Source: a bacterium
GTDB lineage: Bacteria > Patescibacteriota > Microgenomatia > Daviesbacterales > UBA10151
DNA: 64,000 nt
NCBI GenBank assembly: GCA_021786315.1
Contig: JAJYNN010000002.1
Span: 462,997 to 526,996, forward strand
Direction: 5' to 3'
Positions 12,755-54,434 of this stretch are shown one piece after another. The translations under genes were made by a program, and so were the position numbers. The stretch's first letter is position 1; each line of letters begins with the position of its first letter. Below the pieces are notes generated by a model that ran no database searches, was not told where the DNA came from, and saw only the letters and a list, made by a program, of their open reading frames with translations.

Positions 12755-12941
12755 GGAATGCTAAAGATATCAGAATAAATCACTTGTAGAGGGGTTGAGC
12801 TTGAAGATTTTTGGAGCGGGAGACGGGATGATCACTCCTCGCTGCGTTCGGAGTTGAACCTACTTAGCTCTGCGAGATGCGTATATTCCAAATGCGGGTC
12901 TTACTCACAAAAAATCAGCCACAAGGGCCGACATTTTTATG

Positions 12942-13013
12942 AGCGGGAGACGGGATTCGAACCCGCGACATCCTCGTTGGCAACGAGGCACTCTACCACT
13001 GAGTTACTCCCGC
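12942..13013 (-). tRNA. tRNA-Gly (anticodon GCC)
   Basis: RC reads GCGGGAGTAACTCAGTGGTAGAGTGCCTCGTTGCCAACGAGGATGTCGCGGGTTCGAATCCCGTCTCCCGCT. Confidence 0.85.
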
Positions 13014-13181
13014 GAACGTTAGTGAGCGGTGAGCACTTCCGCAGCCAATTTTTGGTTGGCGAGGAGTACTCCCACATTTTGGTGCCGCAGCCTGGAATAG
13101 GGCTACTCGCTAAAGCGAGATCCTGTTCCTGTCTGCTTCAAAATTTGTCTTTGCTGACACAAGGTCAGCACGACAAACTTG

Positions 13182-13254
13182 TGCCGCAGCCTGGAATCGA
13201 ACCCGGATAAGACGCTCTTCAGGCGCCCGCCTTGACCAACTTGGCTACTGCGGC
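13182..13254 (-). tRNA. tRNA-Phe (anticodon GAA)
   Basis: RC reads GCCGCAGTAGCCAAGTTGGTCAAGGCGGGCGCCTGAAGAGCGTC..CCGGGTTCGATTCCAGGCTGCGGCA; one G-A mismatch in the T-stem. Confidence 0.8.
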
Positions 13255-13362
13255 TAGTCTACTAGACGCCAGCAAACGAGGTGTTAAACTTTGTAAACAC
13301 CGAGTTTACTGCGACGATCAAAACTAACCAATTTTATCTAATTAACCTCTGTTATGCAATTG

Positions 13363-13435
13363 TGGGCACTAAGGGACTCGAACCCCTGACATCTACAGTG
13401 TAAATGTAGCGCTCTACCAACTGAGCTAAGTGCCC
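13363..13435 (-). tRNA. tRNA-Val (anticodon TAC)
   Basis: RC reads GGGCACTTAGCTCAGTTGGTAGAGCGCTACATTTACACTGTAGATGTCAGGGGTTCGAGTCCCTTAGTGCCCA. Confidence 0.85.
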
Positions 13436-13488
13436 TCGCTTTGCTCGGTCACTTGCGATAGTTCCGCTACGCGTGTAACTATCTAAAG

Positions 13489-13582
<94 letters not shown>

Positions 13583-13593
13583 TTGGTTGCTTG

Positions 13594-13676
13594 TGCCGAG
13601 GACAGGACTTGAACCTGCACGCCTTTTGGGCACTACCACCTCAAGGTAGCGTGTATACCAGTTTCACCACCTCGGC
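13594..13676 (-). tRNA. tRNA-Leu (anticodon GAG), long variable arm
   Basis: RC reads GCCGAGGTGGTGAAACTGGTATACACGCTACCTTGAGGTGGTAGT..GCAGGTTCAAGTCCTGTCCTCGGCA. Confidence 0.8.
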
Positions 13677-13725: not shown

Positions 13726-14607
13726 CTAGGAAAGTTTTTTGAGGTATTCTTTGAAGTCTTCCCCAAATTCCGGGTGTTTTAAGCCATATTCCACCACCGT
13801 TTTTAAGTATTCCAGCTTATTGCCTGTGTCGCGGTAAACTGCATTTTTGATTTCAATTGCGTGGACAGGCTTGCCCTGGTCAATCATGCCCTGAAGGCCC
13901 ATAAGGTAAACCAACTCTTCCCCCTCTTTAAGGTTGGGTTCGGCAGCTTCCAGGTGCTCAAAGATATCCGGAGTGGCCAAAAACCCGCTTACCACCGCTA
14001 AATCCGAAGGGGAATTTTCTCTTGTCTTGGGTTTTTCAACAACCTTACTGACCTTAATTACCCCCGGTTCGACAACTTCTCCTCCGGCAAACCCATACTT
14101 TTTATAATCCTCATCTGATTTGGCTCGGAGTGCGCCCAAGATAGGAGAATTGTATTTTTCATATGCCTCGATAAGTTGTTTGGCCCTTGAAGGCTCGGCA
14201 TCAATAAAGTCATCTCCCCAAAAGACCAAGAACGGGTCATTATCCATGATCTGTTTGGCATTTAAGATAGGGGTAGCATTTCCTTGGGGACCCTTTTGGC
14301 GGATGTAGATAAATTCCGCCATGTCGGAGATTTTTTTAACCGTTTCCAGCTCTTCCAGCTTACCTGCTTTAGCGAGTTTATCTTCCAGCTCATACTGGTT
14401 ATCAAAATGGTCCTCAATGGCTCTCTTGTAGAGCCCGGTGACAATGACAATGGTTTCAATTCCGGCATCAACAAGCTCCTCCACTACCCTTTGGATAATG
14501 GGTTTATCCACCAAAGGCATCATTTCCTTGGGCATGGCTTTTGTTTGGGGCAAGAAGCGGGTGCCAAAGCCTGCTGCAGGTATTAAAGCTTTTTTAATTT
14601 TTGACAT
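13726..14607 (-). CDS. galU: UTP--glucose-1-phosphate uridylyltransferase
   Basis: KALIPAAGFGTRFLPQTKAMPKEMMPLVDKP signature of GalU-type nucleotidyltransferases. Confidence 0.85.
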   Translation of the reverse strand: MSKIKKALIPAAGFGTRFLPQTKAMPKEMMPLVDKPIIQRVVEELVDAGIETIVIVTGLYKRAIEDHFDNQYELEDKLAKAGKLEELETVKKISDMAEFIYIRQKGPQGNATPILNAKQIMDNDPFLVFWGDDFIDAEPSRAKQLIEAYEKYNSPILGALRAKSDEDYKKYGFAGGEVVEPGVIKVSKVVEKPKTRENSPSDLAVVSGFLATPDIFEHLEAAEPNLKEGEELVYLMGLQGMIDQGKPVHAIEIKNAVYRDTGNKLEYLKTVVEYGLKHPEFGEDFKEYLKKLS

Positions 14608-21395: not shown

Positions 21396-21467
21396 CTCCT
21401 TTAAGGCTTATATCATGAAACACCCCAGTAAATTCCCTGTTATAAGGTGGCATGTAATCTGTAAGAC

Positions 21468-21845
21468 ATGGAGGTTGACTACTTATTAGAGAATGTTATT
21501 ATTAATATAGTGAAACTTCTTTTTAACTGGTTAATTTCTGCTTTGGTAATCCTCTCTGTCCCCTATATTCTTCCGGGGGTGCATGTTCAAAGCTTTACTG
21601 TGGCACTGGTTGTGGCGTTGGTTTTGGGTATAATTAATGCTTTCCTGCGGCCTCTCCTTTTATTTTTAACCTTGCCTTTAAATATCCTGACCTTTGGTTT
21701 ATTTACCCTGGTAATTAACGCCGTATTAATTATGCTTACAGGATCGCTTGTTTCCGGGTTTGTGGTGGATAACTTTTGGTGGGCTTTGCTTTTTGGACTG
21801 GCGCTTTCTGTAATTAATACATTCCTGCGTAAGATTTCCCGCTAG
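21468..21845 (+). CDS. DUF360 (putative 4-TM holin-like) membrane protein
   Basis: Four hydrophobic helices; PYILPGV..INAFLRPLL pattern. Confidence 0.6.
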   Translation: MEVDYLLENVIINIVKLLFNWLISALVILSVPYILPGVHVQSFTVALVVALVLGIINAFLRPLLLFLTLPLNILTFGLFTLVINAVLIMLTGSLVSGFVVDNFWWALLFGLALSVINTFLRKISR

Positions 21846-24490
21846 GTCACAAAGGCCGGGTTCTTAATATAGTATTTATTATCCGTAATGTAGTTTGTGA
21901 TAACGTAGTCGGCGTTCATATTGGTTGTTAAGGTAAAGTCTGCCATCTTAAAGTCATCGTTAAAGAAAATTACCGCTTTGATGTTGGGCATGGTAGGGAT
22001 GTCTTCTGACAGGGTTTGTTCAAACCAAAGGTATTTTAAGCCTCCGGCGCTTGAGGATGAGGTCTCAGCCACCATTATCGGCTTATGGTAATTGGATAAA
22101 ATAGTATAAGTATCATAAGCCAGACTCTTGAAGGAGTTCCAGTAGGTTACCCCCGGATTAGAGGTTCCCCAGTTAAACCCGGAAAAACCCACCCAGTCAA
22201 CATACTGGTCTCCCGGATAGTATTTAACAATAGAATCTCTATTGCCGTCGGCATCTGTGGCATTGGGAGCCCAAATCCACATGACATTATTGGCATGCTC
22301 TTCCTGGAAAATATTGTAAACATGTATCCACATCTTGATGTAATCATCAGGCGTATTGCCATTTATGTCTCCCCAGGGGTACCAGTTACCGTTCATCTCG
22401 TGGGCAAAACGGAGGAAGAAAGGTTTACGGTAGGCAGCTGCTTCCCTTGCCCATTGGTGGATGTAGCTGTCGTATTGGCCACTGGCTATAGCTTTGGGGG
22501 AGTATTGGGTTTGCTCGGTTGAGCCCTTAACAGGATCACCTTTTGACGGATCCCAAGGCTCCCAGGTAATTACCGGTACAACATTTTGGTTAGATAAAGC
22601 ATTCATAAAATTCAAATCAAATTGTGGTTCGCTTCCCCATTCCTGGTAAAACATGACCAATGATGGTTTTTCTCCGGAAATTACCCCCACTTCCGGATCT
22701 TTTGGGTGGGTATTTAAGCTTGGCAGGTAATAACCATAATAGGCTCCATTTTCCGGAATGACCAGCTTCTGTTGCTTAATGGTATTGGCGAGGAACAAGT
22801 TTGGCGATCCTTCTGTAGCAAAAGTATAGATACTTGTACTGTTGGTAATTAGCAGAATCACGGCTAAAGCAAATGCCGGTTTGACAAGGACTTTTCCGGA
22901 GAATTTTACCCATCTGAATAACAAATCCAGAGGTTTAAAAATAAAGTCTTCTATTGGCTGTATATGGTAATTCTCCCGAAAGATTAGATAAAACCCTAAG
23001 GCCAGGATTGTGGTATCGAAAGTTGCCCAGAAATAATTAAAAAAACCGCCCAAGTAATGAGTTAAACTATGGGTGATACTGTAATAAAGCCCGATGGCTA
23101 AAACAGCCAGGATTACAAGTTGTACTCGGTAAACATTAAACACGTTTTCCTTTTGGTATTTTTTGATTGTGACAACAAAACTCGACCTCTTACCTAAAAT
23201 ACTGGAGACAAGGGCTCTGACAAAAACCGGGAAGGAAATAACATCCAGGACGATACTTTTTAACGGTTCCCGGAAAAGCATCCCGAACATGACAAAGTTA
23301 TAAATCAAATATGGGCCGTAAATTAGAAGCAGAAAATTTATGGTGTTTGGCTTGATTGGTGAAATGCCGAAGAACAGATACGGAATTGGAGCCAAAATTA
23401 AGATTAAATCCCTGAGGCCGATAAGGTAATATGTCGCGGCCACTAAATAGTGGAATTTTTGTTTTAAGGTTAAGGGTCCGAAAAGTATGTGTTTAAAGTA
23501 AGCCCTGGTGACATCAAAGTTGCCCTTTGACCAACGCTGCTGTTGGGAAAAATATGCCTTTAGGGATTCAGGAGCCATACCGTAAGCTAATACCTTGGGC
23601 ATGAAAACTCCCCTTTTCCCTTTCATATGCAATTCCAAAGAAGTTGCATAGTCCTCAGTGATAAACCTGGTGTCCATCCCTCCGACAGAATTCAAGGCCT
23701 CACGCCTGATCATAAAATTCGTACCGCACAAAAACAGTGCGTTATTGTAACCTGTTGCCGGGCAAACATGGTCAAAGAAAAATATCTGGTGGGCGGCTGC
23801 CCCTTTAGCCACCCATGATTGCTCATTTTGGTATCTTTGCGGACTTTGGACGAAGTCGATCTTTGGGTTTTTAAACGGTTTTGTCATCTCCAGTAAAAAT
23901 TCGTCCGTTGCTTTAAAGTCCGAATCAAAAACAACGTCTAAGGTATTGTGGGGGTCAGGGGTTTCAAGGGTTTTTAATGCATTATTTATATTCCCTGCCT
24001 TAAAACCTCCCGGTATTTGACGGGTGATGCATCTTACCCCCATGTTTTCCGCCAGTTGTTCAATTTCCTGCCAGTTGTCCTTATCGGCGACATATCCGTC
24101 GTTTAAAACTACAACCTGGGGTCTGTGTACGGGTTTAATTGTTTTGGTATAGGTGTCAGCGGCATTCTTGGCTCCCTGGATAGTGTTTCTGACGATATCA
24201 GTTGGTTCCCCACAAACGCAAATCAATAGATTAATCCGCAGGTTACGGTCATAATTAATATCTTCCCATTTGTCGTAATTGCGCGGCCAGAGATTATAAA
24301 ACATGCCGAAAAGATGAAGAATTGTATGGGATTCAGCCAAAAATACAATAATGCTGAAGATGGCAATAACAGGAGTGAGATTTATATATTGGATACGGAA
24401 GTAAACATAAAACGAAAGTAAGATAACCCCTAAAATTAGAACAATTTTCTTCCCCAGCTCACGTAAACCTTCCATTGGACTGCTCTCCAA
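21842..24490 (-). CDS. Fusion of a processive GT2 glycosyltransferase (cellulose-synthase-like, N-terminal) and a GH26-like glycoside hydrolase (C-terminal)
   Basis: GT2 motifs DGY, DSDF, QSPQRYQNE, QQQRWSKGN (QxxRW) and multiple TMs; C-terminal WEPWDPSKG ... FLRFAHEMNGNWYPWG ... VAETSS, GH26/clan GH-A like. Confidence 0.75.
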   Translation of the reverse strand: MESSPMEGLRELGKKIVLILGVILLSFYVYFRIQYINLTPVIAIFSIIVFLAESHTILHLFGMFYNLWPRNYDKWEDINYDRNLRINLLICVCGEPTDIVRNTIQGAKNAADTYTKTIKPVHRPQVVVLNDGYVADKDNWQEIEQLAENMGVRCITRQIPGGFKAGNINNALKTLETPDPHNTLDVVFDSDFKATDEFLLEMTKPFKNPKIDFVQSPQRYQNEQSWVAKGAAAHQIFFFDHVCPATGYNNALFLCGTNFMIRREALNSVGGMDTRFITEDYATSLELHMKGKRGVFMPKVLAYGMAPESLKAYFSQQQRWSKGNFDVTRAYFKHILFGPLTLKQKFHYLVAATYYLIGLRDLILILAPIPYLFFGISPIKPNTINFLLLIYGPYLIYNFVMFGMLFREPLKSIVLDVISFPVFVRALVSSILGKRSSFVVTIKKYQKENVFNVYRVQLVILAVLAIGLYYSITHSLTHYLGGFFNYFWATFDTTILALGFYLIFRENYHIQPIEDFIFKPLDLLFRWVKFSGKVLVKPAFALAVILLITNSTSIYTFATEGSPNLFLANTIKQQKLVIPENGAYYGYYLPSLNTHPKDPEVGVISGEKPSLVMFYQEWGSEPQFDLNFMNALSNQNVVPVITWEPWDPSKGDPVKGSTEQTQYSPKAIASGQYDSYIHQWAREAAAYRKPFFLRFAHEMNGNWYPWGDINGNTPDDYIKMWIHVYNIFQEEHANNVMWIWAPNATDADGNRDSIVKYYPGDQYVDWVGFSGFNWGTSNPGVTYWNSFKSLAYDTYTILSNYHKPIMVAETSSSSAGGLKYLWFEQTLSEDIPTMPNIKAVIFFNDDFKMADFTLTTNMNADYVITNYITDNKYYIKNPAFVT

Positions 24491-24571
24491 GGGTTAAAAC
24501 GAAGCAAGGAGGCAAACGTAACACTAGCCTTGCGGTAAATGGAGTTAGCGGAGGATAGTTTTAGAAAAAGA

Positions 24572-25405
24572 TTATTTTTTACCGTTTCCGTTATTTCTTG
24601 TATGACCTTGGGGATTAGGTGAATCCTGTTTTGGGGACTGGTTCTCTGATGGCCGGTTTGAATTGTTGTCAGGATGAGGACTTTGGCTATTGTTTATTGG
24701 AGGTGAGATTGCAGGTGTTTGTTGTGAAGAACCGCCGCTTGGGGTAATGGCGCGGTTAGGGCTTATTTCAGGCGGCGCTTGCTCGATTATTAGGGTTGGT
24801 GCAGAAAGTGGGATTTGTTTACTGGCGCCTTCTATTTCAGGCTCACTTTTTTGTGTGTTTGGAAGGGCATCTTTTTCATCTTTTTCTATGTCTTTAACCG
24901 CTTTGCTTGCCTCCGGAAGCTTTTTATTTATCTGGTCATCGTCTAAATGGCCCACCTCTTTGACTTCTTCAATGCTTTGTTTATAACCATTAAGTCCTCT
25001 TTCTATTAAATCTGTTTTGCCTTGTTGTTCCAGCTGTCTTAATTCTTCTGCCCGTCGCTCCACTACTTTAAGCGCAAGGTCTGTCTTTAACTGTTGGGTT
25101 GGAACGGCAGCTATTGCTACTTGTTCTGTTGCTGTCTTGATGGGATAAAGGGGATCAGAAGGCAGTGAGGATTGGGAAGCAAAGGCTATACCTGCTCCGG
25201 ACACCAAAAATGCAAGTGAGGTTGCTGCGATATATCTTAATGGCTTAAAAAACCAGGATGTCTTTTTTGTAAGTATAGGTTGAGGGCTGGTAATATAGTT
25301 TAATAATCTTTTCCGGGTATTAATTTTAAATAAAGGGTCTGGTTTACTTTCATTAAGTTCTGAAAGGTTACTCAGAATTTTTTCCAAGCTTTTGCTTTTT
25401 TTCAT
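24572..25405 (-). CDS. Putative anti-sigma factor (single-pass membrane protein downstream of the ECF sigma)
   Basis: Gene context; one TM (LRYIAATSLAFLVSGAGIAFA); extracytoplasmic low-complexity tail. Confidence 0.45.
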   Translation of the reverse strand: MKKSKSLEKILSNLSELNESKPDPLFKINTRKRLLNYITSPQPILTKKTSWFFKPLRYIAATSLAFLVSGAGIAFASQSSLPSDPLYPIKTATEQVAIAAVPTQQLKTDLALKVVERRAEELRQLEQQGKTDLIERGLNGYKQSIEEVKEVGHLDDDQINKKLPEASKAVKDIEKDEKDALPNTQKSEPEIEGASKQIPLSAPTLIIEQAPPEISPNRAITPSGGSSQQTPAISPPINNSQSPHPDNNSNRPSENQSPKQDSPNPQGHTRNNGNGKK

Positions 25406-25536
25406 TTAGCTTTTTCTTGTTTCCCAATTTTAGCTATGAGCTTTTTTTTCATATTTATTTTTGTTTCCTTATCCGGGTTTACTTCCGACATGAATTTCAG
25501 ATGTTTTAAGGTATCTTCTAGTTTTATCTGAGTCAT
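25402..25536 (-). CDS. Possible 44-aa lysine-rich ORF between the sigma and anti-sigma genes; its TGA overlaps the downstream ATG (ATGA)
   Basis: Hand translation MTQIKLEDTLKHLKFMSEVNPDKETKINMKKKLIAKIGKQEKAK; not in the ORF track (<60 aa). Confidence 0.25.
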   Translation of the reverse strand: MTQIKLEDTLKHLKFMSEVNPDKETKINMKKKLIAKIGKQEKAK

Positions 25537-25539
25537 TTT

Positions 25540-26088
25540 TTAAGATTTCTGCCATTCTAACACCTTTTTTAAAGCCTTAAGCGCCCTACTTTGTAAAACC
25601 CTGACCTGCTCTACCGGTTTATCCAGGATTAACCCGATTTCCTTATTTTCCCGCTCTTCAATAAACTTAAAGATGATTATTTCCTGGTATGTGCTTGGAA
25701 GCTGCCTTATGCCTTGCAAAATCATTTGCTTTTGTATATTTTGCTCGGCGATATCCTCAGGATTTGGTTTCTTATCCTCTATTTCAGAAGTTTCATCGAG
25801 CTGGACGGATTGTTTTTTTGTGCGGTAATGGTCGACCAATTGATTGCGGGCAATCCTAAAAACCCAGGCTTCAAAAGGCAGCCCGTTATCGTGGTAGGTG
25901 CTTAACTTTTCATAAGCCTTTAAAAAGACGCTTTCGGTCAAATCCTCCGACTCCTCCTTATTTCCGGTTCTAAAATACATAAATCTGTATATGCGGTCAA
26001 TTAAGTAATCATATATTTTGCCAAATGATTCCCTATCCCCCTTTTGGGCGTTTTTTACCAATAATCGAATTTCATCCTGATCTTTCAT
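25540..26088 (-). CDS. ECF-type RNA polymerase sigma-70 family factor
   Basis: Region 2 (YRFMYFRTGNKEESEDLTESVFLKAYEK) and region 4 HTH. Confidence 0.8.
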   Translation of the reverse strand: MKDQDEIRLLVKNAQKGDRESFGKIYDYLIDRIYRFMYFRTGNKEESEDLTESVFLKAYEKLSTYHDNGLPFEAWVFRIARNQLVDHYRTKKQSVQLDETSEIEDKKPNPEDIAEQNIQKQMILQGIRQLPSTYQEIIIFKFIEERENKEIGLILDKPVEQVRVLQSRALKALKKVLEWQKS

Positions 26089-26228
26089 AAGTAGAAACGA
26101 AGAACTTGCAAAAACGTAACTTTGATGTTCCCTATATCTTGAAAGCTCCAGGGTCAGAGTAACTTATTAATGTGGAGGAAAGTACAGTAAAAGGTAATAA
26201 ACAGGAAAGAAATTAAAGCTTTACTTAC

Positions 26229-27449
26229 CTAGGGCATGTAAGTTTTAAATGCCTGCAGAGAAGTTGCCGAAGAATCGATGCGCCAGTCAGTTTCTTTATT
26301 TAAATCGAACCAGGTTATTTCAGAAACCTTAGGGAATAGGTTAGGTAGGGCGTTGGTAAACATATCTTTAACCCAAGCTGCCTTGTCTCCCCCTTGTTCA
26401 GCAGAAGCGGTTTCAGCGATATAGATTGGTTTGTTATATGTCCGGGTTAAGAAATTATAGGCGTTGGAAAAAACACCAGAGAAGCTTCTCCAACCTGAGC
26501 TGTTGGTGGTTCCGGAATTATAGCCATCAATACCGATAATATCTACGACATCATCCCCAGGGTAAAATTGGGAAGCAGTTGAGATATCCGTATAGGGCAC
26601 ATTGTCCGAGTTAATCGCCCACATCCAGGAAACGTTAGTTACGCCCTGGGCGCGGAACAGGTTTACGATATAGCGGTAAGCGGCCTTGTAATCATCCGGC
26701 CGGTTGCCCCAGGGGTACCAGTTGCCGTTCATTTCATGGCCAAAACGGATCACGACCGGACCGCCATAGCTTTTGACTGAGTTGGCAAAATTTATAAGGT
26801 AAGCATCCTGGCTTCCGGTTGGGATTGCTTTAAGGTAATCAGTTGATTGGTTCATGCCCTGAGACGGATCCCAAGGCTCCCAGGCAATAATCAGTTTCAT
26901 ATTCCTGGATTTGGCATAGGCAAGGTCGGATGAGCTTAGATCCCGGTAAGGTGAACCAAATTGCTTAAAGAAAGAAAGGTGACTGACCGGCTTACCCAGT
27001 TCTGATTCGACAGTGGTTACCCCGGTAGAAGTATTCCAGTCGTTAATAACCACTCCCATCTTAACGTTGGAAGTGACAGGCACTATTGTTGGCGCCGTGG
27101 TTGGGGTGGCAACCGGAGCGGAAGTTAGGGTAGGAGTCGCTGTACCAGATGAAGGTACTGATGTTGGAGCCACAGTGGGCTGAATGGAAGGGGCTACAGT
27201 CGGTGAACTGGATATGGTTGGGGATGGAGTTACACTGGGAGTAGACCCTGCGAACTTATCGTGGTTCTTGTTGCTATGAGTATTGGCAGCCAAAGCAACT
27301 TGGACCAAAGGGCTTAAGTTGCCAAGATTACCTTTCACGGCATAAGTATATCCTCCCAGGGCCAATAAGACTGTGGCCAGGATAACAGAGAGAAAGAGCC
27401 GTGGATTTTCCGAAAAAACTCTCCTGAGGAGAGCGGAGATTTTAGGCAT
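26229..27449 (-). CDS. Secreted/anchored GH26-like glycoside hydrolase with Pro/Thr/Ser-rich linker
   Basis: WEPWDPSQG ... IRFGHEMNGNWYPWG ... IYIAETAS; N-terminal TM; PT-rich linker. Confidence 0.7.
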   Translation of the reverse strand: MPKISALLRRVFSENPRLFLSVILATVLLALGGYTYAVKGNLGNLSPLVQVALAANTHSNKNHDKFAGSTPSVTPSPTISSSPTVAPSIQPTVAPTSVPSSGTATPTLTSAPVATPTTAPTIVPVTSNVKMGVVINDWNTSTGVTTVESELGKPVSHLSFFKQFGSPYRDLSSSDLAYAKSRNMKLIIAWEPWDPSQGMNQSTDYLKAIPTGSQDAYLINFANSVKSYGGPVVIRFGHEMNGNWYPWGNRPDDYKAAYRYIVNLFRAQGVTNVSWMWAINSDNVPYTDISTASQFYPGDDVVDIIGIDGYNSGTTNSSGWRSFSGVFSNAYNFLTRTYNKPIYIAETASAEQGGDKAAWVKDMFTNALPNLFPKVSEITWFDLNKETDWRIDSSATSLQAFKTYMP

Positions 27450-27552
27450 AACGGGTACCCATTCTATCGGGATTCTTACGCGTTTGCAACTTAATTCTTA
27501 CTCTAGTAGAAGGAGACTGACAAGATATAAAAAGCAGTTTTAAGGATTTCCC

Positions 27553-28137
27553 TTATCTAGAAACGAATGGGTTGTCTTTAATAAAAAATCTTAAAGGAAG
27601 GTCAATACTTTTAGTAATCCCTATCCTGGTAGAGGTAATAATTTCTACCTTCTGGTCTGATTCTTGAATGATTATGGGACCCCTGGTCAATTCTGCGCCG
27701 TTTAATTTGATATCTATCCCCATTGCTTGAGTTAGTTTAGCCGGACCGCTGCATAAGTTTTCAATATCCTCCACTCCCCGCCTCTTTTTCATCAATTCGA
27801 TACCTTCAAGAGGCTCTAATGATCTTATCAACACCCCTTCTCCTTTTCCTTTGGGTCCGGTAACTGTGTTGAAGCAGTAATACATACCATAGGTAAAATA
27901 AACATAAGCGCGACCCGGAGAATCAAACATCACAGCATTTCTTGGCGTTCGGCCTTTATAAGAGTGTGAAGATAAATCTCCGGCACTCAGATAAGCTTCT
28001 GTTTCGACAATTTTACCAACAGTGATTCCCTCCGGAAGATTTGTTACCAGGAAGCAACCTAAGAGCTCTTTAGCTACAGTTTCAGCTTTACGGGAATAAA
28101 AAGACCTGGGGAGTACCATTTTTACCCATTCTAACAC
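27553..28137 (-). CDS. DNA-3-methyladenine glycosylase (Mpg/AAG family)
   Basis: [45 protein letters not shown] typical of MPG. Confidence 0.8.
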
Positions 28138-28532: not shown

Positions 28533-29219
28533 ATGCAGCAGCTATATTCTCTGCCATCTTTGGAACTATTTTTCTCGCAATTCGACCTTCAACATTTTAA
28601 AAAGAGGGATTCGATCCTTCAGGCAGAGACTAACCCCATGTACGTATATTTTGTAAAGAGCGGGTATATCCGGGTATACCGTGTTTCTGAGGATGGCGAA
28701 GAACTTACCCTGGTCATACTTAAACCGGGCGACTTATTCCCCTTTGTCTGGTCAGAAAATGATCTCCCCAACCATTATTATTTGGAAGCATTGACTCCGG
28801 TTGATGTTCTAAAGGTCCCCAAGGAGAAGTTTTTGTCATTTTTGGAGTCACAACCAAGGCTTACTTATGAGCTCACAAGCTATCTTCTAGTCCGTTTCGG
28901 AGGACTCTTAACGAGAATGGAATATTTAATTTTTGGTAACGCCTATACCAAAGTGGCTGCTACCTTACTGGTATGTGCGAAAAGCTTTGGTGAGCAGCAA
29001 GGCAACCAGGTTATGGTTAATTTGCCCTTAACCCACAAGGATATTGCCACTATGGTGGGAATTACCCGGGAAACTACCTGCCTGGAGATGAAAAAGTTAG
29101 AACGCCAGGGGTTAATTTCCCACCAGGGCCGTTATTTCATTATTAAGGATCTTCAGGGCTTGGAACACGAATCCCTTCTGGACGAGGAGCAAGACTCCTT
29201 CTTAAACCATTCGTTGTAA
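28533..29219 (+). CDS. Crp/Fnr-family transcriptional regulator
   Basis: cNMP-binding beta-roll and C-terminal HTH THKDIATMVGITRETTCLEMKKLERQGLI. Confidence 0.75.
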   Translation: MQQLYSLPSLELFFSQFDLQHFKKRDSILQAETNPMYVYFVKSGYIRVYRVSEDGEELTLVILKPGDLFPFVWSENDLPNHYYLEALTPVDVLKVPKEKFLSFLESQPRLTYELTSYLLVRFGGLLTRMEYLIFGNAYTKVAATLLVCAKSFGEQQGNQVMVNLPLTHKDIATMVGITRETTCLEMKKLERQGLISHQGRYFIIKDLQGLEHESLLDEEQDSFLNHSL

Positions 29220-29221
29220 TT

Positions 29222-30979
29222 TTATTTAATTTCCAGTGGCTGGTTTTGTGATAAACGCGAATAGACATAGGCCGTTTGGTCGGAAGGTGATAAAAGATAA
29301 GCCTGCCGGGCGGCCATTAATGCTTCATCCGTCTTTTTCAGATTATAGTCAGCTATGGTCAAAATTAACCAAAGCTTTGCATTGTACGGAAGGAGTTTAA
29401 GTGATTCTGTAGTAAAATCGCGGGCTTTCTGGTTGTCTTTATCCTGGAAAAGCAGAATATTGGCGTAGTTTTCATAAGCCAAGTAATATTGGCCGTTATC
29501 GATAGCCTTTTTGTAGTATTCCTTAGCTTTTTGGTAATCTCCCCTTCTTTCGGCAACTACCCCTAAATTATTCCAGTTAGTCCACCATTTTGGGGCCAGC
29601 TGGGCAGATTTTTCAAAATGGATGGCCGCTTCATCCATCTGCCCGTGTCTAAATAGCTCCACCCCGTAATTGTTTTCCAAATCAAAGCTGTTTTGGGAAA
29701 CCTTAATATCGTGGCCATATAAAGTTAAGCCGTCTTTCCAGTCGAAATTACGGATAAAAGTTCGTGCTGAGAGGGCGAGAATGATTACCAGGAGACAGGC
29801 GGTAAAAATTTTCAATTTCCAGGTACCAATTTTCAATGAATTTTCAATTTTGGAATTTGCAAAGATGGTGCCAGCCATACCTAGTAGCCCCACCATGGGA
29901 AGGTAAAACCAGCGGTCAGAATAAGTTAAGTCCAAGGGAAAAATTTGCAGATGCATCCCTAAGCCTGTTGTAAACCAGACAAAGAAAAATAAATAAGCTT
30001 TAAGGTCTTCACTTTTCTTTTTCCACAAAATTGCCGCAATTGATACTAAAATAACAAACAAGGTTAGATCCACCATTAGCGGCATCGTAAAGTTATTCCA
30101 GGTTAAGGATTTCACTGCCCAGTGCTGGTTAATGGCTAGATTCTTGGGAAAAACAAAAGTTTTAAGGTAGGAAAAAATTATTTTGGGGATGCTTAAAATC
30201 CGTTCCGAAAGCGGCATGACGGTAATCGGGGACAATCCGTGTTTATTAAAGAAGATCCCGGCCACCACAAACCTCAGGAATGAATATACCCCGGCTACGG
30301 TGCAAATAGCACCGATATACCGCAAAAGTTCGTGGCGCTTAAAGAATAAAAAGTAAGCTCCAATGATTATTATAAAACCAACCCCGGTTTCTTTGGAAAG
30401 TAACGAAGCAAGCAGCAGTCCGGTCAAAATTAACCACCTCTTGAGGCTGATAATCCCTTTTGTGGCATAATTTAATCCCAAAACGCCAAAGAAAAAGAAC
30501 AGGATATCCTGCAGGTCAGAGATATAAACAACGGTTTCGGTGTTTAGAGGATGAACTAAAAAAATTAACGCCAGGAAAAAGGATAAAGTCTCCTTTTTGA
30601 GAATGCGCTTAAGAATCAGGAAAACAATTACTGAACTTGCAAGGTGTATGGATACCTGGAGAAGGTGGAAAAAGAAGGCATTGGGGCCAAAAACTGTATA
30701 AATTAAGGAAAAGAAAACGGTCATTAGCGGCTTGTAATATAATCCCCCTAACGTACCTGAGCCGCCGCTGTTAAAGGTGCTTTCAGAAAAAAACTGGAAA
30801 ATATTGCCGATGGAGTGTACCGGTAAGTTGTTTAAAACCTGTTCCTCATCATCCCAGACAAAACCATTAAAAAGACTGTTAAAATAAAGAAGTAAACCGA
30901 TTACTATTAGTAGAATCACCCATTTATTTTTCATGAAAGCAGAGTTAACCTTAACAGTATAGCTTGTTTTGATAATCAA
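29222..30979 (-). CDS. GT-C-like polytopic membrane glycosyltransferase with C-terminal TPR repeats (TMTC/PMT-like)
   Basis: ~11 TMs; FVWDDEEQV first-loop acidic motif; C-terminal TPR repeats; an in-frame heptamer repeat insert. Confidence 0.55.
   Translation of the reverse strand: MIIKTSYTVKVNSAFMKNKWVILLIVIGLLLYFNSLFNGFVWDDEEQVLNNLPVHSIGNIFQFFSESTFNSGGSGTLGGLYYKPLMTVFFSLIYTVFGPNAFFFHLLQVSIHLASSVIVFLILKRILKKETLSFFLALIFLVHPLNTETVVYISDLQDILFFFFGVLGLNYATKGIISLKRWLILTGLLLASLLSKETGVGFIIIIGAYFLFFKRHELLRYIGAICTVAGVYSFLRFVVAGIFFNKHGLSPITVMPLSERILSIPKIIFSYLKTFVFPKNLAINQHWAVKSLTWNNFTMPLMVDLTLFVILVSIAAILWKKKSEDLKAYLFFFVWFTTGLGMHLQIFPLDLTYSDRWFYLPMVGLLGMAGTIFANSKIENSLKIGTWKLKIFTACLLVIILALSARTFIRNFDWKDGLTLYGHDIKVSQNSFDLENNYGVELFRHGQMDEAAIHFEKSAQLAPKWWTNWNNLGVVAERRGDYQKAKEYYKKAIDNGQYYLAYENYANILLFQDKDNQKARDFTTESLKLLPYNAKLWLILTIADYNLKKTDEALMAARQAYLLSPSDQTAYVYSRLSQNQPLEIK
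29806..29860. repeat. AATTTTC-type heptamer array inside the 29222..30979 coding sequence (in-frame)
   Basis: aaaattttcaatttccaggtaccaattttcaatgaattttcaattttggaatttgc. Confidence 0.5.
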
Positions 30980-30982
30980 TGT

Positions 30983-31735
30983 ATGAAGTATTTGAACGAA
31001 TATATCAAAGTTGCTCCCATGTCTCTCGCCTTCTGGCGGGTTCTTGAGGCTAATGCGCTTGGTAAAGTTAAACTCTCCCGTCCAATTCTAGATATCGGCT
31101 GTGGCTTTGGAGAGTTTTCCGGTGTCTTTTTTAAAAGTTTCGTTGAAGTGGGTGTTGATATTTCAGAGAGGGATTTATTGCTGGCGAAGGAAAAACAAAA
31201 ATATAAAAAATTAATTTTAGCAGATGCCCGGCAGCTACCTTTTCCTAACAATAAATTTAAAAGCGTAATCTCTATTAGCGTTCTGGAACATATCCCGGAA
31301 GTCGAAACGGTTTTTCCTGAAATCTTTCGAGTTTTACAGCCGGGAGGAATCTTTACTTTTACCGTTCCCACCTCAGTCCTCAATGACGCATTGATCTTGC
31401 CCCCGCCCCGCGGGTGGTGGTTAAAGGTTTACCACTGGTCTTTTAAACATAAAGTTATTTTACCGAAAAATACCTGGATTAACTGGTGTAAAAAAGCTGG
31501 ATTTGAAATCAAAGAGTCCTCAGGGACGATTTCCCGAAAACAATTACTTGCTTTTCAAGCAGGTCTCCCTTTGGCTTTACCATCGCAAATACATAGGTTG
31601 TTTTTTACCAAGAGATTAATAGTTTTAACTTCTTTCCGAAGATGGTTGCTAAGAAAAGTCATTTACATTTTAGGAGAGACTTCAACTCCATCAGATGCCA
31701 ACATCATTATTATCGCCCAAAAACCAAAATCATGA
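30983..31735 (+). CDS. Class I SAM-dependent methyltransferase
   Basis: ILDIGCGFGEF motif I and LQPGGIFTFTVP post-II motif. Confidence 0.7.
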   Translation: MKYLNEYIKVAPMSLAFWRVLEANALGKVKLSRPILDIGCGFGEFSGVFFKSFVEVGVDISERDLLLAKEKQKYKKLILADARQLPFPNNKFKSVISISVLEHIPEVETVFPEIFRVLQPGGIFTFTVPTSVLNDALILPPPRGWWLKVYHWSFKHKVILPKNTWINWCKKAGFEIKESSGTISRKQLLAFQAGLPLALPSQIHRLFFTKRLIVLTSFRRWLLRKVIYILGETSTPSDANIIIIAQKPKS

Positions 31736-32559
31736 CCCGTTGCCCTATTTGTTTATCCTCTAAATTTAAAAATATTTTCTCGACGAGAGCCTCTGCACGA
31801 AATAAAGGTAAATATCAAATTACCCAGTGTTGTAAATGCCATCTGGGGGTTTTGACACCCTCACTAAATGAAGAAGAATTAAAGCAAATTTACCAGGAGA
31901 ATTATTTTAAAGATGAGGCCCCGGTAGAAAATTCGGATGCGGCAGTTAAATTTCAGTTTGTTAGGAGACATCTACCGGCTGATTTTAAACTGCTTGATTT
32001 TGGGTGTGGGGTGGGGAACTTTTTGGGTATTTGCCAAAAAGAAGGTTTTTTTTGCCAAGGGTTTGATATGTCTGAATTTGCGGCAAAATATGTATCACAA
32101 AAATATAAGATACCTGTAAAGACTGGTAAACTACAAAAAGGATTGTTTCCTGCTAACTTTTTTGATGCAATAGTTGTCTTTGACGTTATTGAACATATCT
32201 CGGATTTTTCAGAAGCAATTCGATTATGGAACCTGTGGTTAAAAAAAGGAGGAACATTATTTATTACAACTCCAAACTTAGAAAGTTTAGATGCAAAAAT
32301 ATTAGGAAGATTTTGGTATGGTTATCAAAAAATACCACAACATCTTAATTATTTTAATCCTGATTCCATTAAAATTTTGTTAAATAGATATCATTTTGCC
32401 AATATCAAAATTAGGGGTTGGGGATTTAGCCGGAATTTAGAATTTTTTGCCCAAAAATTATTTCGCCGAAGTCATATACCTATACTTGGTGTACTTCTTA
32501 GAAGGATAAATGTTTTTTTCCCTATAGTTGATATGATGGTTATAGCCCAAAAAGACTAA
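31732..32559 (+). CDS. Class I SAM-dependent methyltransferase with N-terminal zinc ribbon; start reassigned to the ATG overlapping the upstream stop (ATGA)
   Basis: CPICLSSKF..CCKCHLGVL ribbon; LLDFGCGVGNFLG motif I; LKKGGTLFITTPN. Confidence 0.65.
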   Translation: MTRCPICLSSKFKNIFSTRASARNKGKYQITQCCKCHLGVLTPSLNEEELKQIYQENYFKDEAPVENSDAAVKFQFVRRHLPADFKLLDFGCGVGNFLGICQKEGFFCQGFDMSEFAAKYVSQKYKIPVKTGKLQKGLFPANFFDAIVVFDVIEHISDFSEAIRLWNLWLKKGGTLFITTPNLESLDAKILGRFWYGYQKIPQHLNYFNPDSIKILLNRYHFANIKIRGWGFSRNLEFFAQKLFRRSHIPILGVLLRRINVFFPIVDMMVIAQKD

Positions 32560-32560
32560 T

Positions 32561-37640: not shown

Positions 37641-37647
37641 ACAAATT

Positions 37648-39138: not shown

Positions 39139-39140
39139 AG

Positions 39141-40634: not shown

Positions 40635-40641
40635 TTCCTCT

Positions 40642-42450: not shown

Positions 42451-42473
42451 ATGTATTTCTTATTTTTAGACAT

Positions 42474-52694: not shown

Positions 52695-54434
52695 ATGACA
52701 AATTACATTAAACTTATCTTTTTAATCTCATTCTTAATTCTGAATTCTATATTCTTAATTCGGCCTGCACAGGCTGTTGTTGATCCCCTATCCACCCCTA
52801 ACAATAAATTTGGGGTCCACATTATTACCGGCAGCCCCGACGAGGCTTCCCCTGCCGCCCAGATGGTAAACTCCTCCGGCGGAGACTGGGGCTATATTAC
52901 GGTTTTAATTGAAAGTAAAAATAGGAATCACGATCAATGGCAAGCCTTTTTTAATGATTTAAGACGCCGACACTTAATCCCTCTGGTAAGAATTGCTACC
53001 GAGCCTGAGGGAAATTATTGGAAAATTCCTTATAACGGTGAAGAACAAGCCTGGGCAGACTTCCTGGACAGCCTGGTTTGGCCCACCAAGAACCGTTATG
53101 TCATTATCTATAACGAGCCCAACCAGGGCCAGGAATGGGCTGGTAAAGTGGATCCGGCCTCTTATGCCCAGGTTTTAGATAAAACAATCACCGCTTTAAA
53201 GAATAAAAATCCCGATTTTTTTGTCCTCAATGCCGGACTTGATGCATCTGCCCCCGATAAATACCCCAGCTACGCTGATGAGACCACATTCTTAAGCCAA
53301 ATGGAGGCTGCAGTCCCGGGGATTTTTAATAAGCTGGATGGCTGGGTTTCCCATTCCTACCCCAACCCCGGCTTTGCCGGTTCCCCTGATGCCTCCGGAC
53401 GCGGGACAGTCAGGACTTGGGCTTGGGAGTTAAATTACCTGAAAAATTTAGGTGTAAATAAAACTCTCCCGGTGTTTATTACCGAAACAGGCTGGAAACA
53501 TGCTGAGGGGCTGGATTACGATAAATCCTTACCCAATGCCGATACAGTCGCCGATTATCTTAAGGATGCTTTTACCAATGCCTGGAATAGCAGCCAAATC
53601 GTGGCTGTTACCCCATTCCTGCTCAACTACCAACAGGCTCCTTTTGACCATTTCTCTTTTAAGAAGCTGACAGGAGAGCCGCAAAACCTGAAGATCCTTG
53701 GCGCTTCCTACCCGGATTATTACCCGCCATACCAAGCTATGATGGATCTGCCGAAGGTAGCCGGCCACCCTTTTCAGGAAAACAAAGCTGCTCTAGTAAA
53801 AGGCACTATTTACCCCTCAATTGTGGCCGGGGAAAGCTACACCATTCCCTTAACCTTTAAAAATACAGGGCAATCAATTTGGGAGGATGGTGAACCACTT
53901 GAGCTCAGGGTATTATCCGGAGGTGATGATTTTGGAATTCAATCCATTCAGCCTGCCATTGCCCAAAAAGTAGAACCCGGACAAAACGCTATCTTTAATG
54001 TAAATCTTAAAGCTCCCCAAGGCGGAGATTATCAAATTACCCTACAGCTATTTCACGGAGGCAAAGCTTTTGACCAAAACCCGTTTGTTTTCAATACCAA
54101 GGTTAAATCCCCGGTGATTTTACAGGTTAAAACTTCCCTTTGGGGCAAGAAAAATTCTGCCGGAAGTTATCTTTTAACCATCCTCAATAACGCTTTTAAG
54201 AGCAGTGTCGAGGTAACCATAGATGACCAGGGAATATCCAAACCTTTGGAATCACGCTATCTTTTGCCGGATTATCCTTTTACCTTTACCCTCCACAAAC
54301 CCTTCTATAAACCTAAGTCGATCAATGTTCAGGTTGTTTCCGGTATCAACCAGTTAAATTTTGGGACTTTAGAGCCTGACTTCTTATCAGCGATTTTAAA
54401 TCCCAAAGAGTTTTGGGATTTGCTTCCGTTTTAG
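52695..54434 (+). CDS. Secreted clan GH-A (GH5-like) glycoside hydrolase with C-terminal beta-sandwich domains
   Basis: Signal peptide; IIYNEPNQG (NEP acid/base) and VFITETGW (nucleophile) motifs; its signal-peptide region is encoded by a heptamer repeat. Confidence 0.55.
   Translation: MTNYIKLIFLISFLILNSIFLIRPAQAVVDPLSTPNNKFGVHIITGSPDEASPAAQMVNSSGGDWGYITVLIESKNRNHDQWQAFFNDLRRRHLIPLVRIATEPEGNYWKIPYNGEEQAWADFLDSLVWPTKNRYVIIYNEPNQGQEWAGKVDPASYAQVLDKTITALKNKNPDFFVLNAGLDASAPDKYPSYADETTFLSQMEAAVPGIFNKLDGWVSHSYPNPGFAGSPDASGRGTVRTWAWELNYLKNLGVNKTLPVFITETGWKHAEGLDYDKSLPNADTVADYLKDAFTNAWNSSQIVAVTPFLLNYQQAPFDHFSFKKLTGEPQNLKILGASYPDYYPPYQAMMDLPKVAGHPFQENKAALVKGTIYPSIVAGESYTIPLTFKNTGQSIWEDGEPLELRVLSGGDDFGIQSIQPAIAQKVEPGQNAIFNVNLKAPQGGDYQITLQLFHGGKAFDQNPFVFNTKVKSPVILQVKTSLWGKKNSAGSYLLTILNNAFKSSVEVTIDDQGISKPLESRYLLPDYPFTFTLHKPFYKPKSINVQVVSGINQLNFGTLEPDFLSAILNPKEFWDLLPF

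Follow-up and report, generated by a model that had tools for sequence, protein, structure and literature searches.

A dedicated glycosidase, the role of which is still under debate, belongs to nearly all synthase-dependent exopolysaccharide systems, among them those for cellulose, poly-N-acetylglucosamine (PNAG), alginate and Pel. In the cellulose system this enzyme is BcsZ, an inverting hydrolase of glycoside hydrolase family 8 (GH8) that is a separate protein from the synthase BcsA. Here we analyse a stretch of 64,000 nucleotides (contig JAJYNN010000002.1, positions 462,997 to 526,996, assembly GCA_021786315.1), below called the window, from a bacterium of the candidate phyla radiation (CPR). 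Domain, structure and motif comparisons support the view that one gene on its minus strand encodes a covalent fusion between a processive cellulose-synthase-like glycosyltransferase of family 2 (GT2) and a predicted extracytoplasmic GH26 domain that is catalytically intact, with both of its glutamates. We read this protein, with a probability of roughly 0.6, as a self-contained machine for a synthase-dependent exopolysaccharide, which would synthesise, export and immediately cleave a beta-glucan, possibly one of mixed linkage. A synthase-hydrolase fusion alone is not astonishing; a phylum-spanning module of GT2 and lichenase-type GH26 is a useful and testable lead.

The window system shares with BcsA/BcsZ a processive GT2 that has the D, DxD, TED, QxxRW and FxVTxK motifs and a transmembrane (TM) channel of its own. 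It also shares a dedicated extracytoplasmic glycoside hydrolase encoded with the synthase. However, neither Pfam nor NCBIfam detects a PilZ domain in the fusion protein, and no BcsB-like gene is present among the called neighbours in the window. The best NCBIfam match, the cellulose synthase catalytic subunit CelA (TIGR03030, residues 15-497), reaches 190.5 bits against an equivalog cutoff of 699.1. The protein is thus not a BcsA in the strict sense, the c-di-GMP-activated cellulose synthase of the TIGR03030/NF008558 equivalog. Moreover, the hydrolase here is a retaining GH26 enzyme fused through an extra TM helix, whereas BcsZ is encoded separately, and the present host has no outer membrane.

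A precedent within one chain is NdvB, the 'Orphan' cyclic beta-1,3-glucan synthase, which consists of a periplasmic GH17 domain, a TM region and a cytoplasmic GT2 domain (PMC10237404). Both proteins combine a PilZ-less BcsA-like GT2 with an extracytoplasmic retaining glycosidase of clan GH-A, which is presumed to process the nascent chain where it leaves the channel. The published precedent of NdvB supports the logic of a synthase-hydrolase fusion. However, GH17 is N-terminal in NdvB while GH26 is C-terminal here, and the fusion protein has no GH17 match. The glycosidase domain of NdvB is a demonstrated transglycosylase that makes cyclic glucan, whereas the activity of the window GH26 is predicted from sequence and modelled fold. 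NdvB is also a protein of Pseudomonadota, as opposed to CPR and Actinomycetota. The window fusion is an analogue of NdvB and not a member of its family. In tunicates, cellulose synthase (CesA) has the order synthase, TM helix and C-terminal GH6-like domain, and a separate paralogue, GH6-1, parallels the stand-alone GH26 described below (PMC7464555). The GH6 portion of the tunicate protein is reported not to have kept the probable active site, whereas both glutamates are invariant in the present family; GH6 is moreover an unrelated fold and family, and the host is eukaryotic.

The hydrolase half belongs to the same GH26 subfamily as CtLic26A, the GH26 module of CelH from C. thermocellum (PDB entries 2bv9 and 2vi0), and the E109/E222 pair of that enzyme is conserved. 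CtLic26A, however, is a secreted cellulosomal enzyme that degrades plant mixed-linkage glucan, while the GH26 domains of the window are membrane-tethered and tied to a synthase. Two further BcsA-like GT2 enzymes, BgsA of the S. meliloti bgsBA operon and RiGT2 of Romboutsia ilealis, make a non-cellulose beta-glucan (PMC10374906). BgsA is PilZ-less too, and the window GT2 is 28% identical to a HlyD-adjacent GT2 on S. meliloti pSymB, which fits the bgsBA operon of that study. In contrast to the window system, BgsA works with the HlyD-like protein BgsB, which is absent here, and RiGT2 needs its PilZ domain. A GH26 partner is described for neither enzyme, and the term 'GH26' is absent from the paper. 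RiGT2 was considered as a member of the GT2-GH26 family and rejected on account of its PilZ domain and of the unmentioned GH26 partner (PMC10374906).

That a synthase may have a glycosidase dedicated to it, in some cases within one chain, is therefore already known. The GT2-GH26 pairing, its breadth, the tie of the fused form to a single-membrane envelope and the possible product have not been described. A literature search, outside which most subscription journals lay, so that absence is not proof, found no description of a GT2-GH26 synthase pair. Its nearest item was WpsE, a GH26 protein in a Wzx/Wzy-type cluster of Actinoplanes and hence of a different pathway; according to that 2026 paper, no Wzx/Wzy-type cluster with GH26 has been characterised.

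Architecture of the GT2::GH26 fusion protein

The fusion gene and its parts are the following:

21842..24490, minus strand: GT2::GH26 fusion gene, a single open reading frame (ORF) of 882 aa from TTG, without internal stops
22970..24490, minus strand: BcsA-like synthase module, residues 1-507 (BcsA alignment, Foldseek, CelA profile)
22886..22969, minus strand: cytoplasmic linker, residues 508-535, K/R-rich, with an amphipathic helix at 511-527 in the AlphaFold2 (AF2) model
22817..22885, minus strand: extra (seventh true) TM helix, residues 536-558, hydropathy peak 1.96
21911..22756, minus strand: GH26 (beta/alpha)8 barrel, residues 579-860 (PF02156, phmmer, Foldseek)
22397-22399, minus strand: codon of the acid/base E698, aligned to CtLic26A E109
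22064-22066, minus strand: codon of the nucleophile E809, aligned to CtLic26A E222

The initial annotation of this locus had proposed one polypeptide made of a cellulose-synthase-like GT2 and a GH26-like hydrolase. Indeed, the GT2 and GH26 Pfam matches fall in one chain, and the 882-aa frame is uninterrupted, so the gene does not fall apart into two. Its true start is probably the ATG at 24475 and not the TTG at 24490, because a Shine-Dalgarno GGAG stands 9 nt upstream of this ATG and because the identical protein in public databases (P0001) is 877 aa long, the length that the ATG gives. The names of fusion proteins in public databases are generic, such as 'glycosyltransferase' or 'cellulose synthase (UDP-forming)'. 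The source is a metagenome-assembled genome and other phyla hold split versions of the pair, and one might therefore ask if a frameshift, a mis-assembly or a read-through has merged two genes that are separate in the organism. We give this idea practically no credence. The identical protein is present on four contigs, one of them from the assembly of an independent read set, and the continuous fused architecture is common to at least 59 clusters at 90% identity in CPR, which are 46-60% identical. The single TM helix demanded by the topology is always found in the linker. An assembly artefact is excluded by these many independent recoveries of the fused architecture.

The synthase module comprises two N-terminal TM helices, a cytoplasmic GT-A domain (residues about 75-340), interface helices, four further TM helices and a gating loop. 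Four Pfam GT2 families match residues about 90-374 (PF13632, E 4e-23 over 187-374; PF13641; PF13506; PF00535), and the PRK11498 model gives 122.7 bits against its cutoff of 992. Rhodobacter BcsA (4hg6/4p00) is matched by phmmer over residues 25-463 with an E-value of 5e-35. In a Foldseek comparison of the N-terminal half with the PDB, BcsA comes out on top (E 2e-26, 524-557 aligned columns), ahead of hyaluronan synthase (about 1e-13) and chitin synthase (about 1e-11). The BcsA alignment takes in KAGN, DxD (D189, D191), LCGTN (the equivalent of FFCGS), TED (D280), QxxRW (W320) and FxVTxK, the gating loop F438-V-V-T-I-K443 being aligned to FAVTAK of BcsA. Among 37 full-length homologs of 47-59% identity (alignment A1), the residues D131, D189, D191, T278-E-D280, Q316, Q317, R319, W320, F438, T441 and K443 are invariant, as are the motifs just named from the BcsA alignment, KAGN and LCGTN included. 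The module thus has all the marks of a processive GT2 of the BcsA/CesA type, namely D, DxD, TED and QxxRW, a TM channel of its own formed by six helices flanking the GT domain, and FxVTxK. The motifs quoted in the initial annotation are all in place: D189xD191, QSPQRY at 215, TED at 278-280 and QQQRW at 316-320 and, in the hydrolase half, HEMNG with E698 and AETS with E809.

When the GT2 half is compared with other synthases, its profile scores are 190 bits for CelA versus 47 for PgaC and 16 for NodC, and its E-value is 4e-34 against BcsA versus only 6e-9 against IcaA. The better match to cellulose synthase than to PNAG, Nod and chitin synthases, together with a GalU-like gene 7 kb away, supports a glucan rather than a polymer of N-acetylhexosamine (HexNAc) as the probable product of the GT2.

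The C-terminal half matches Glyco_hydro_26 (PF02156) over residues 675-772 with 58.3 bits (cutoff 20.2). With a profile score above the gathering threshold, a barrel fold and both catalytic glutamates, it belongs to GH26, which is a catalytic family; the initial annotation had named assignment to a non-catalytic family as what would speak against it. The phmmer match to CtLic26A has an E-value of 3e-34, versus 8e-10 or weaker for mannanase and xylanase members of GH26, and E109 (HEANG) and E222 (IIAEF) of CtLic26A, in the chain numbering of the alignment, fall on E698 and E809. In Foldseek, the C-terminal half fits CtLic26A (2vi0/2bv9) at E 6e-18 with a TM-score on the target of 0.82-0.84, while the fits to a mixed-linkage xylanase (TM-score 0.61-0.63) and a mannanase (0.60) are poorer. 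By sequence and modelled fold, then, the fused GH26 is of the lichenase (CtLic26A) type. At the level of the subfamily, the term 'mannanase-type' in the initial annotation has to be given up, as the mannanases reach about 1e-9 and a TM-score of 0.60 only. Relative to CtLic26A, the fused domain has a 15-residue insertion after the WEPW motif.

The catalytic residues of the hydrolase are well kept. E698 and E809 are invariant in A1 and in 18/18 fused domains across phyla, and throughout the subfamily the acid/base glutamate is present in 124/124 domains and the nucleophile glutamate in 122/124. Residues 30-267 of CtLic26A, rebuilt from the alignment, served as a query against every GH26 ORF of the fetched loci. 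The identity is 31% with the fused domain, 45% (E 3e-50) with the stand-alone GH26 of the window, and 40-47% with synthase-adjacent GH26 proteins from Omnitrophota, Coriobacteriia and others. Given these identities, and only 36% between the two paralogues of the window, the lone characterised enzyme of the subgroup falls within the clade of synthase-associated GH26 proteins.

In BcsA, the chain is cytoplasmic after TM8 and continues with the PilZ domain. In the fusion protein, the first two helices are equivalent to TM3-4 of BcsA, helices 342-374 and 384-405 to TM5-6, helix 409-431 to interface helix 3, and helices 450-473 and 482-508 to TM7-8. The equivalent of TM8 is followed by a K/R-rich stretch of 28 residues, the hydrophobic helix 536-558, a short linker rich in S/T/N and the GH26 barrel. 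A linker, a TM helix and GH26 are thus found in place of PilZ with its RxxxR motif. The start of this linker is the end point of the GT2 proteins at split loci, where IFYFNRELR and a stop codon match LIFRENY507. There are six K/R between residues 506 and 538, and the distribution of charges (loops 432-449 and 506-535 rich in K/R, loop 474-481 without any) agrees with the positive-inside rule. In the 37 homologs the sequence of the GT2-to-GH26 linker is variable and its length 59-86 residues. It contains exactly one strong hydrophobic span in 31/37 of them, one weaker span in the other 6, and two in none.

BcsA homology, hydropathy and the positive-inside rule therefore lead to the prediction that the GH26 domain is outside the membrane. 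This requires an odd number of crossings between the GT2 and GH domains, and there is one conserved span after the cytoplasmic GT module in 37/37 homologs. The extra TM helix is best read as a former signal anchor of GH26, because the GH26 proteins of split loci carry their own anchor or lipobox at the corresponding position. An AF2 model built on A1 has a mean predicted local distance difference test score (pLDDT) of 86.5 and is poorly defined only at residues 530-570. The domain search, topology prediction and structure prediction for which the initial annotation had called thus agree with its proposal of an outside hydrolase: GT2 and GH26 are found, AF2 and Foldseek give the folds of BcsA and CtLic26A, and the location is predicted as above.

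The local gene unit and its fused and split forms in other phyla

Upstream of the fusion gene and in the same direction lie the following genes:

26229..27449, minus strand: stand-alone GH26 paralogue of 406 aa (PF02156, 63 bits)
25540..26088, minus strand: extracytoplasmic function (ECF)-type sigma-70 factor (Pfam Sigma70_r2 and r4; TIGR02937, 96 bits, cutoff 42.9)
25402-25536, minus strand: 44-aa ORF, 3 nt past the stop of the sigma gene and overlapping the start of the DUF5667 gene by 4 nt
24572..25405, minus strand: DUF5667 single-pass membrane protein (PF18915, E 4e-12; TM helix around residues 57-75)

The local unit consists of four co-directional genes: stand-alone GH26, ECF sigma, DUF5667 and fusion gene. 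The stand-alone GH26, which the initial annotation had already pointed out, is a real second GH26 gene. In its protein, a TM anchor at the N-terminus is joined by a linker of about 70 aa, rich in P/T/S/A, to an intact barrel that has E239 and E346; the identity to the fused domain is 36% (E 3e-44). In 5/5 CPR-type loci looked up, a stand-alone GH26 is upstream of the fusion gene on the same strand. Ca. Blackburnbacteria has the identical four-gene order, with a fused protein 56% identical and a sigma factor 58% identical to those of the window; in three other loci (L006, L007 and L008) the stand-alone GH26 is directly upstream of the fusion gene, without the sigma/DUF5667 insert. From its position and topology, we infer that the DUF5667 protein is a candidate anti-sigma partner of the ECF sigma factor. 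The initial annotation was silent on the sigma/DUF5667 pair between the two GH26-encoding genes and on the absence of PilZ. Ca. Blackburnbacteria lacks the 44-aa ORF, and its sigma and DUF5667 genes overlap directly. The ORF may encode a genuine micro-protein, or it may be the N-terminus of the DUF5667 protein after a frameshift.

When one genome was scanned for each GTDB species, 578 relatives came to light, of which 80 loci were kept; together with earlier loci this made 83 distinct loci, which were parsed by ORF calling and BLASTP with separate GT2, GH26, CE4, sigma and DUF5667 queries. The fused form is found in 19/83 loci, from CPR, Actinomycetota (Solirubrobacterales, Thermoleophilaceae, Acidimicrobiales), Coriobacteriia and Chloroflexota, and all 19 are from single-membrane lineages. 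The initial annotation had implied that such a fusion is rare. It is instead the standard state in Microgenomates-type genomes of CPR, in Solirubrobacterales and in others, and NdvB and tunicate CesA are published fused precedents. In 25/83 loci the two genes are split but directly adjacent on the same strand, with a GT2 of about 515 aa followed by a GH26 of about 315 aa. The split lineages are Omnitrophota (8), Elusimicrobiota, delta-proteobacteria/Thermodesulfobacteriota, Pseudomonadota, Sumerlaeota, Bipolaricaulota, some Coriobacteriia and a cultured Kocuria strain. Finally, 31/83 loci have a GH26 of the subfamily without a GT2 within 5 kb. The GT2-GH26 linkage, either as a fusion or as overlapping or adjacent genes, is kept across at least 10 phyla.

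At the split loci, the GT2 ORFs end about ten residues past TM8, and GH26 starts at an ATGA-type overlap or right after the GT2 stop. At its N-terminus the split GH26 carries a lipoprotein or signal-anchor sequence of its own, such as MKFFLYVILILLLVFSVSC; in Kocuria this is a twin-arginine (Tat) lipoprotein signal. Given this end of the GT2 and this N-terminus of the GH26, the split state is genuine. Since the extra TM helix of the fused proteins sits at the position of the signal anchor of split GH26, the fusion is simply explained by the loss of a stop codon. Fused GH26 domains form several separate identity groups. In Coriobacteriia the fused GH26 is 60-64% identical to the split GH26, so that fusion or fission must have occurred repeatedly. 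In 15/19 fused loci, one or more additional stand-alone GH26 genes lie within 5 kb, and two hydrolase domains per synthase are a recurring theme.

In an exhaustive search of 1.84 billion representatives at 50% identity, the whole CPR clade is one representative. Besides it, about 35 representatives align in a single stretch that covers both domains, and about 30 other long proteins do so in two stretches. Many long representatives, of 1250-1390 aa, are triple fusions of GT2, GH26 and a second clan GH-A barrel, as in P0119 and P0120, where this barrel has weak GH2_C/GH72 matches. The triple-fusion gene in locus L092 (6001-10110) is followed by a gene for a 695-aa TPR protein. Four delta-proteobacterial/Thermodesulfobacteriota loci have an extra ninth TM helix on the GT2 ORF and a following GH26 ORF without signal peptide: L018 (4893-7538), L023 (4926-7487), L070 and L090. 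In L070 and L090 the GT2 ORF also has a SPOR-like tail, and in L018 and L023 the GH26 frame resumes in-frame after a single stop (TAA or TAG). These four may be recent fission events, pseudogenes or sequencing errors. Recoding at the in-frame stops between GT2 and GH26 was considered and rejected, the stops being plain TAA and TAG.

Proposed function and competing explanations

The analysis shows the architecture, the intact motifs, the logic of the topology, the subfamily, the synteny and the fused/split distribution. Which substrate is used, how the polymer is linked, whether GH26 cuts it, how the system is regulated and why selection favours the fusion are inferred. The cytoplasmic GT-A domain would polymerise a beta-linked hexose, most likely from UDP-glucose, and the chain would be extruded through the channel of the synthase's own TM helices, as in BcsA. 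Because PilZ is absent, gating by cyclic di-GMP (c-di-GMP) through this domain is ruled out; where the ECF sigma/DUF5667 pair is present, control by envelope signals would probably take its place. The polypeptide would return to the cytoplasm for 28 residues, recross the membrane and set the retaining GH26 on the outer face beside the channel exit. There GH26 would cleave the emerging polymer, as BcsZ is proposed to do for BcsA, for chain release, for the setting of chain length or for the clearing of stalled chains. The stand-alone membrane-anchored GH26, on its long flexible linker, may act further out, in the wall. The fusion probably originated when adjacent GT2 and GH26 genes were joined and the signal anchor of the hydrolase became the connecting TM helix. 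Fusion, or tethering by a lipoprotein or TM anchor, would keep the enzyme by the synthase in cells without an outer membrane; it would be favoured there because a free enzyme would diffuse away.

Since GH26 is in the lichenase (CtLic26A) subfamily, the product is most likely a beta-glucan, possibly a mixed-linkage beta-1,3;1,4-glucan, which is an attractive candidate on subfamily grounds, and a beta-mannan is less likely. A self-editing machine for beta-mannan or glucan had been suggested initially. Self-editing is still the most reasonable interpretation, as GT2 and GH26 are translationally coupled elsewhere, but the beta-mannan does not agree with a lichenase-type GH26.

Several observations weigh against the proposed beta-glucan machine. 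The GT2 half is equally distant from BcsA (plasmid-borne, 28.5%) and from the HlyD-adjacent PilZ-less GT2 of S. meliloti pSymB (28%), and a choice of polymer from the GT2 half was rejected because BcsA and the bgsBA-type GT2 are equidistant. CtLic26A is said, in work of Taylor and colleagues from 2005, to be specific for mixed-linkage beta-1,3;1,4-glucan and inactive on mannan and on beta-1,4-glucan; as an enzyme that reportedly does not cleave pure beta-1,4-glucan, it would make plain cellulose a poor fit. The identity of only 31% between the fused domain and CtLic26A leaves room for another specificity. Models were unable to separate the synthesis of cellulose from that of mixed-linkage glucan in the Romboutsia study (PMC10374906). 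In our AF2 model the connecting TM helix and linker have a pLDDT of 40-54, so that the placement of GH26 over the channel exit is not defined by the model. A scan of 21400-27900 for promoters and terminators gave counts at the level of shuffled sequence (14 vs 13.1 and 8 vs 8.3), and because these are background we claim no operon structure. The literature search found no biochemical characterisation of any GT2-GH26 member. Finally, the nearest GT2-only relatives, 59-62% identical over the GT2/TM module, are partnered with CE4 polysaccharide deacetylases and not with GH26.

This last point raises the question of whether the polymer is a plain glucan at all. It might be acetylated or contain HexNAc or mannose, with GH26 and CE4 as alternative extracytoplasmic partners; PgaB (CE4 and GH153) and PelA (GH166 and CE4) are analogues. 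CE4 is fused C-terminally in P0063 and P0065, a 776-aa CE4-PA14 gene is adjacent in L010, and in L007 GH26, GT2::GH26 and a 776-aa CE4 stand in a row. It would seem that a single synthase chassis exchanges its extracytoplasmic modifying domains, which puts the polymer in doubt. Moreover, most characterised GH26 enzymes in the PDB list are mannanases, and the window itself has a CE4 gene. The CE4-partnered relatives are at 6001-8496 in L009, 3274-7911 in L010 and 9658-11988 in L007. However, the GT2 matches cellulose synthase far better than PNAG, chitin or Nod synthases, the Foldseek result for BcsA is likewise far ahead of those for hyaluronan and chitin synthases, and GH26 is of the lichenase and not of the mannanase type. 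A CE4 gene adjacent to the pair is absent in the window, Ca. Blackburnbacteria, L006 and L008, and the CE4 genes of L007 may belong to flanking NodC-like GT2/sortase modules. We therefore regard a polymer other than plain glucan as unlikely.

A different possibility concerns the reaction. The GH26 domains could mainly be transglycosylases, which cut the nascent glucan and transfer it to a glycan or wall acceptor in cross-linking, branching or cyclisation, and so give a wall-attached or remodelled layer. The mechanism of GH26 is a retaining double displacement and both glutamates are intact. Fungal wall enzymes of GH72 and GH16, which work by transglycosylation, offer a parallel, and the triple fusions carry a clan GH-A barrel that weakly matches GH72 glucanosyltransferase. 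The occurrence of at least two GH26 copies per synthase in 15/19 fused loci suggests a division of labour, and sortase genes adjoin the locus in L006 and L007. In NdvB, too, a BcsA-like GT2 is fused to a characterised trans-beta-glucosylase, its GH17 domain (PMC10237404). On the other hand, CtLic26A, the lone characterised close relative, is a hydrolase according to the PDB titles, and the sequence holds nothing that separates transfer from hydrolysis. We also know of no transglycosylase in GH26, and we think transfer plausible but unlikely as the main activity. Much less can be said for the idea that the two halves are unrelated, GH26 being a digestive enzyme, tethered to the surface, with which the cell takes up beta-glucan from its environment or host, and GT2 a mere anchor. 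CPR bacteria are reliant on scavenged substrates, CtLic26A is a degradative cellulosomal enzyme, and the 31/83 loci without a nearby GT2 would agree with such a role. Yet the GT2-GH26 linkage across phyla, in fused or overlapping adjacent genes, does not, and GT2 is not a degenerate anchor because its catalytic and gating residues are all invariant. Nor are genes for sugar transport or catabolism found with the pair in the window. This explanation is very unlikely in our view.

The proposed machine for synthesis, export and cleavage of a beta-glucan would bear on several questions. A natural fusion at the channel exit, together with split versions elsewhere, is strong genetic evidence for cutting as part of synthesis, and the fusion protein offers a minimal one-protein model for the coupling of the two. 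It also points to a likely biosynthetic role for GH26, a family known almost only for degradative mannanases. The family is large, with at least 35 clusters at 50% identity, and uncharacterised, and the split version in the cultured Kocuria strain makes experiments feasible. Little is understood of the surface chemistry of CPR bacteria and of their attachment to hosts, and for them a specific surface beta-glucan is predicted. Should the product be mixed-linkage glucan, this polymer would be far more widely distributed among bacteria than is now known. In a more speculative vein, and only tentatively, GT2 and CtLic26A-type GH26 may constitute an unrecognised phylum-spanning exopolysaccharide system for mixed-linkage beta-1,3;1,4-glucan or another non-cellulosic beta-glucan. 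A lichenase-type enzyme would be its obligatory biosynthetic partner, and degradative CtLic26A an offshoot of a biosynthetic family. No synthase-dependent pathway for a surface polymer would have been assigned to CPR before this one, and it might mediate host-cell attachment under ECF-sigma control.

Other genes of the window

The remaining features considered are the following:

10002-11291, minus strand: MurT-like lipid II isoglutaminyl synthase subunit, which points to peptidoglycan amidation of the Gram-positive type
13726-14607, minus strand: GalU-like UTP-glucose-1-phosphate uridylyltransferase (258 bits)
21468-21845, plus strand: Phage_holin_4_2 family protein of 125 aa with four TM helices, converging on the fusion gene, 3' ends overlapping by 4 nt
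28533-29219, plus strand: Crp/Fnr-family regulator binding cyclic nucleotides (cNMP), two to three genes upstream of the stand-alone GH26
47027-47947, minus strand: CE4 deacetylase of 306 aa, PgaB/IcaB-like N-deacetylase (97.6 bits, below the equivalog cutoff)

The GalU-like enzyme could supply UDP-glucose to the synthase. MurT amidates lipid II in walls of the Gram-positive type. The named relatives of the threonyl-tRNA synthetase (ThrRS) are from CPR/Patescibacteria, and for the fusion gene, for both GH26 genes and for the synteny of the four genes the nearest relatives are likewise CPR of the Microgenomates type. The ThrRS relatives and the presence of MurT support a probable single-membrane host. 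The label 'Firmicutes/Bacillota' of the deposit GCA_023379775.1, in which the longest contig measures 942 kb, was rejected on the affinities of ThrRS and is probably a misassignment.

A GH5-like gene at 52695..54434, to which the initial annotation had drawn attention as lying nearby, was rejected as a part of the system, since its Pfam Cellulase score of 21 bits is below the cutoff of 23.5 and it is about 28 kb away. The CE4 gene is 22.5 kb from the fusion gene, and no PgaC/IcaA-like synthase was seen beside it. A Crp/Fnr regulator is likewise present in the distant locus L006 (2579-3262), which may be a coincidence or a second regulatory link. The Phage_holin_4_2 neighbour is kept in a second contig (L002). 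In the region 29222-44944, a series of large membrane proteins match PMT_2/PMT (GT-C type glycosyltransferase) and TPR. Two S-adenosylmethionine (SAM) methyltransferases, a fusion of GT2 with a methyltransferase (40642-42450) and several large ORFs without a family match lie there too, and the region has the look of an island for surface glycosylation. The 64 kb contain 13 tRNA genes, five of which (Gly, Phe, Val, Leu, Leu) are clustered within about 740 bp at 12941-13676.

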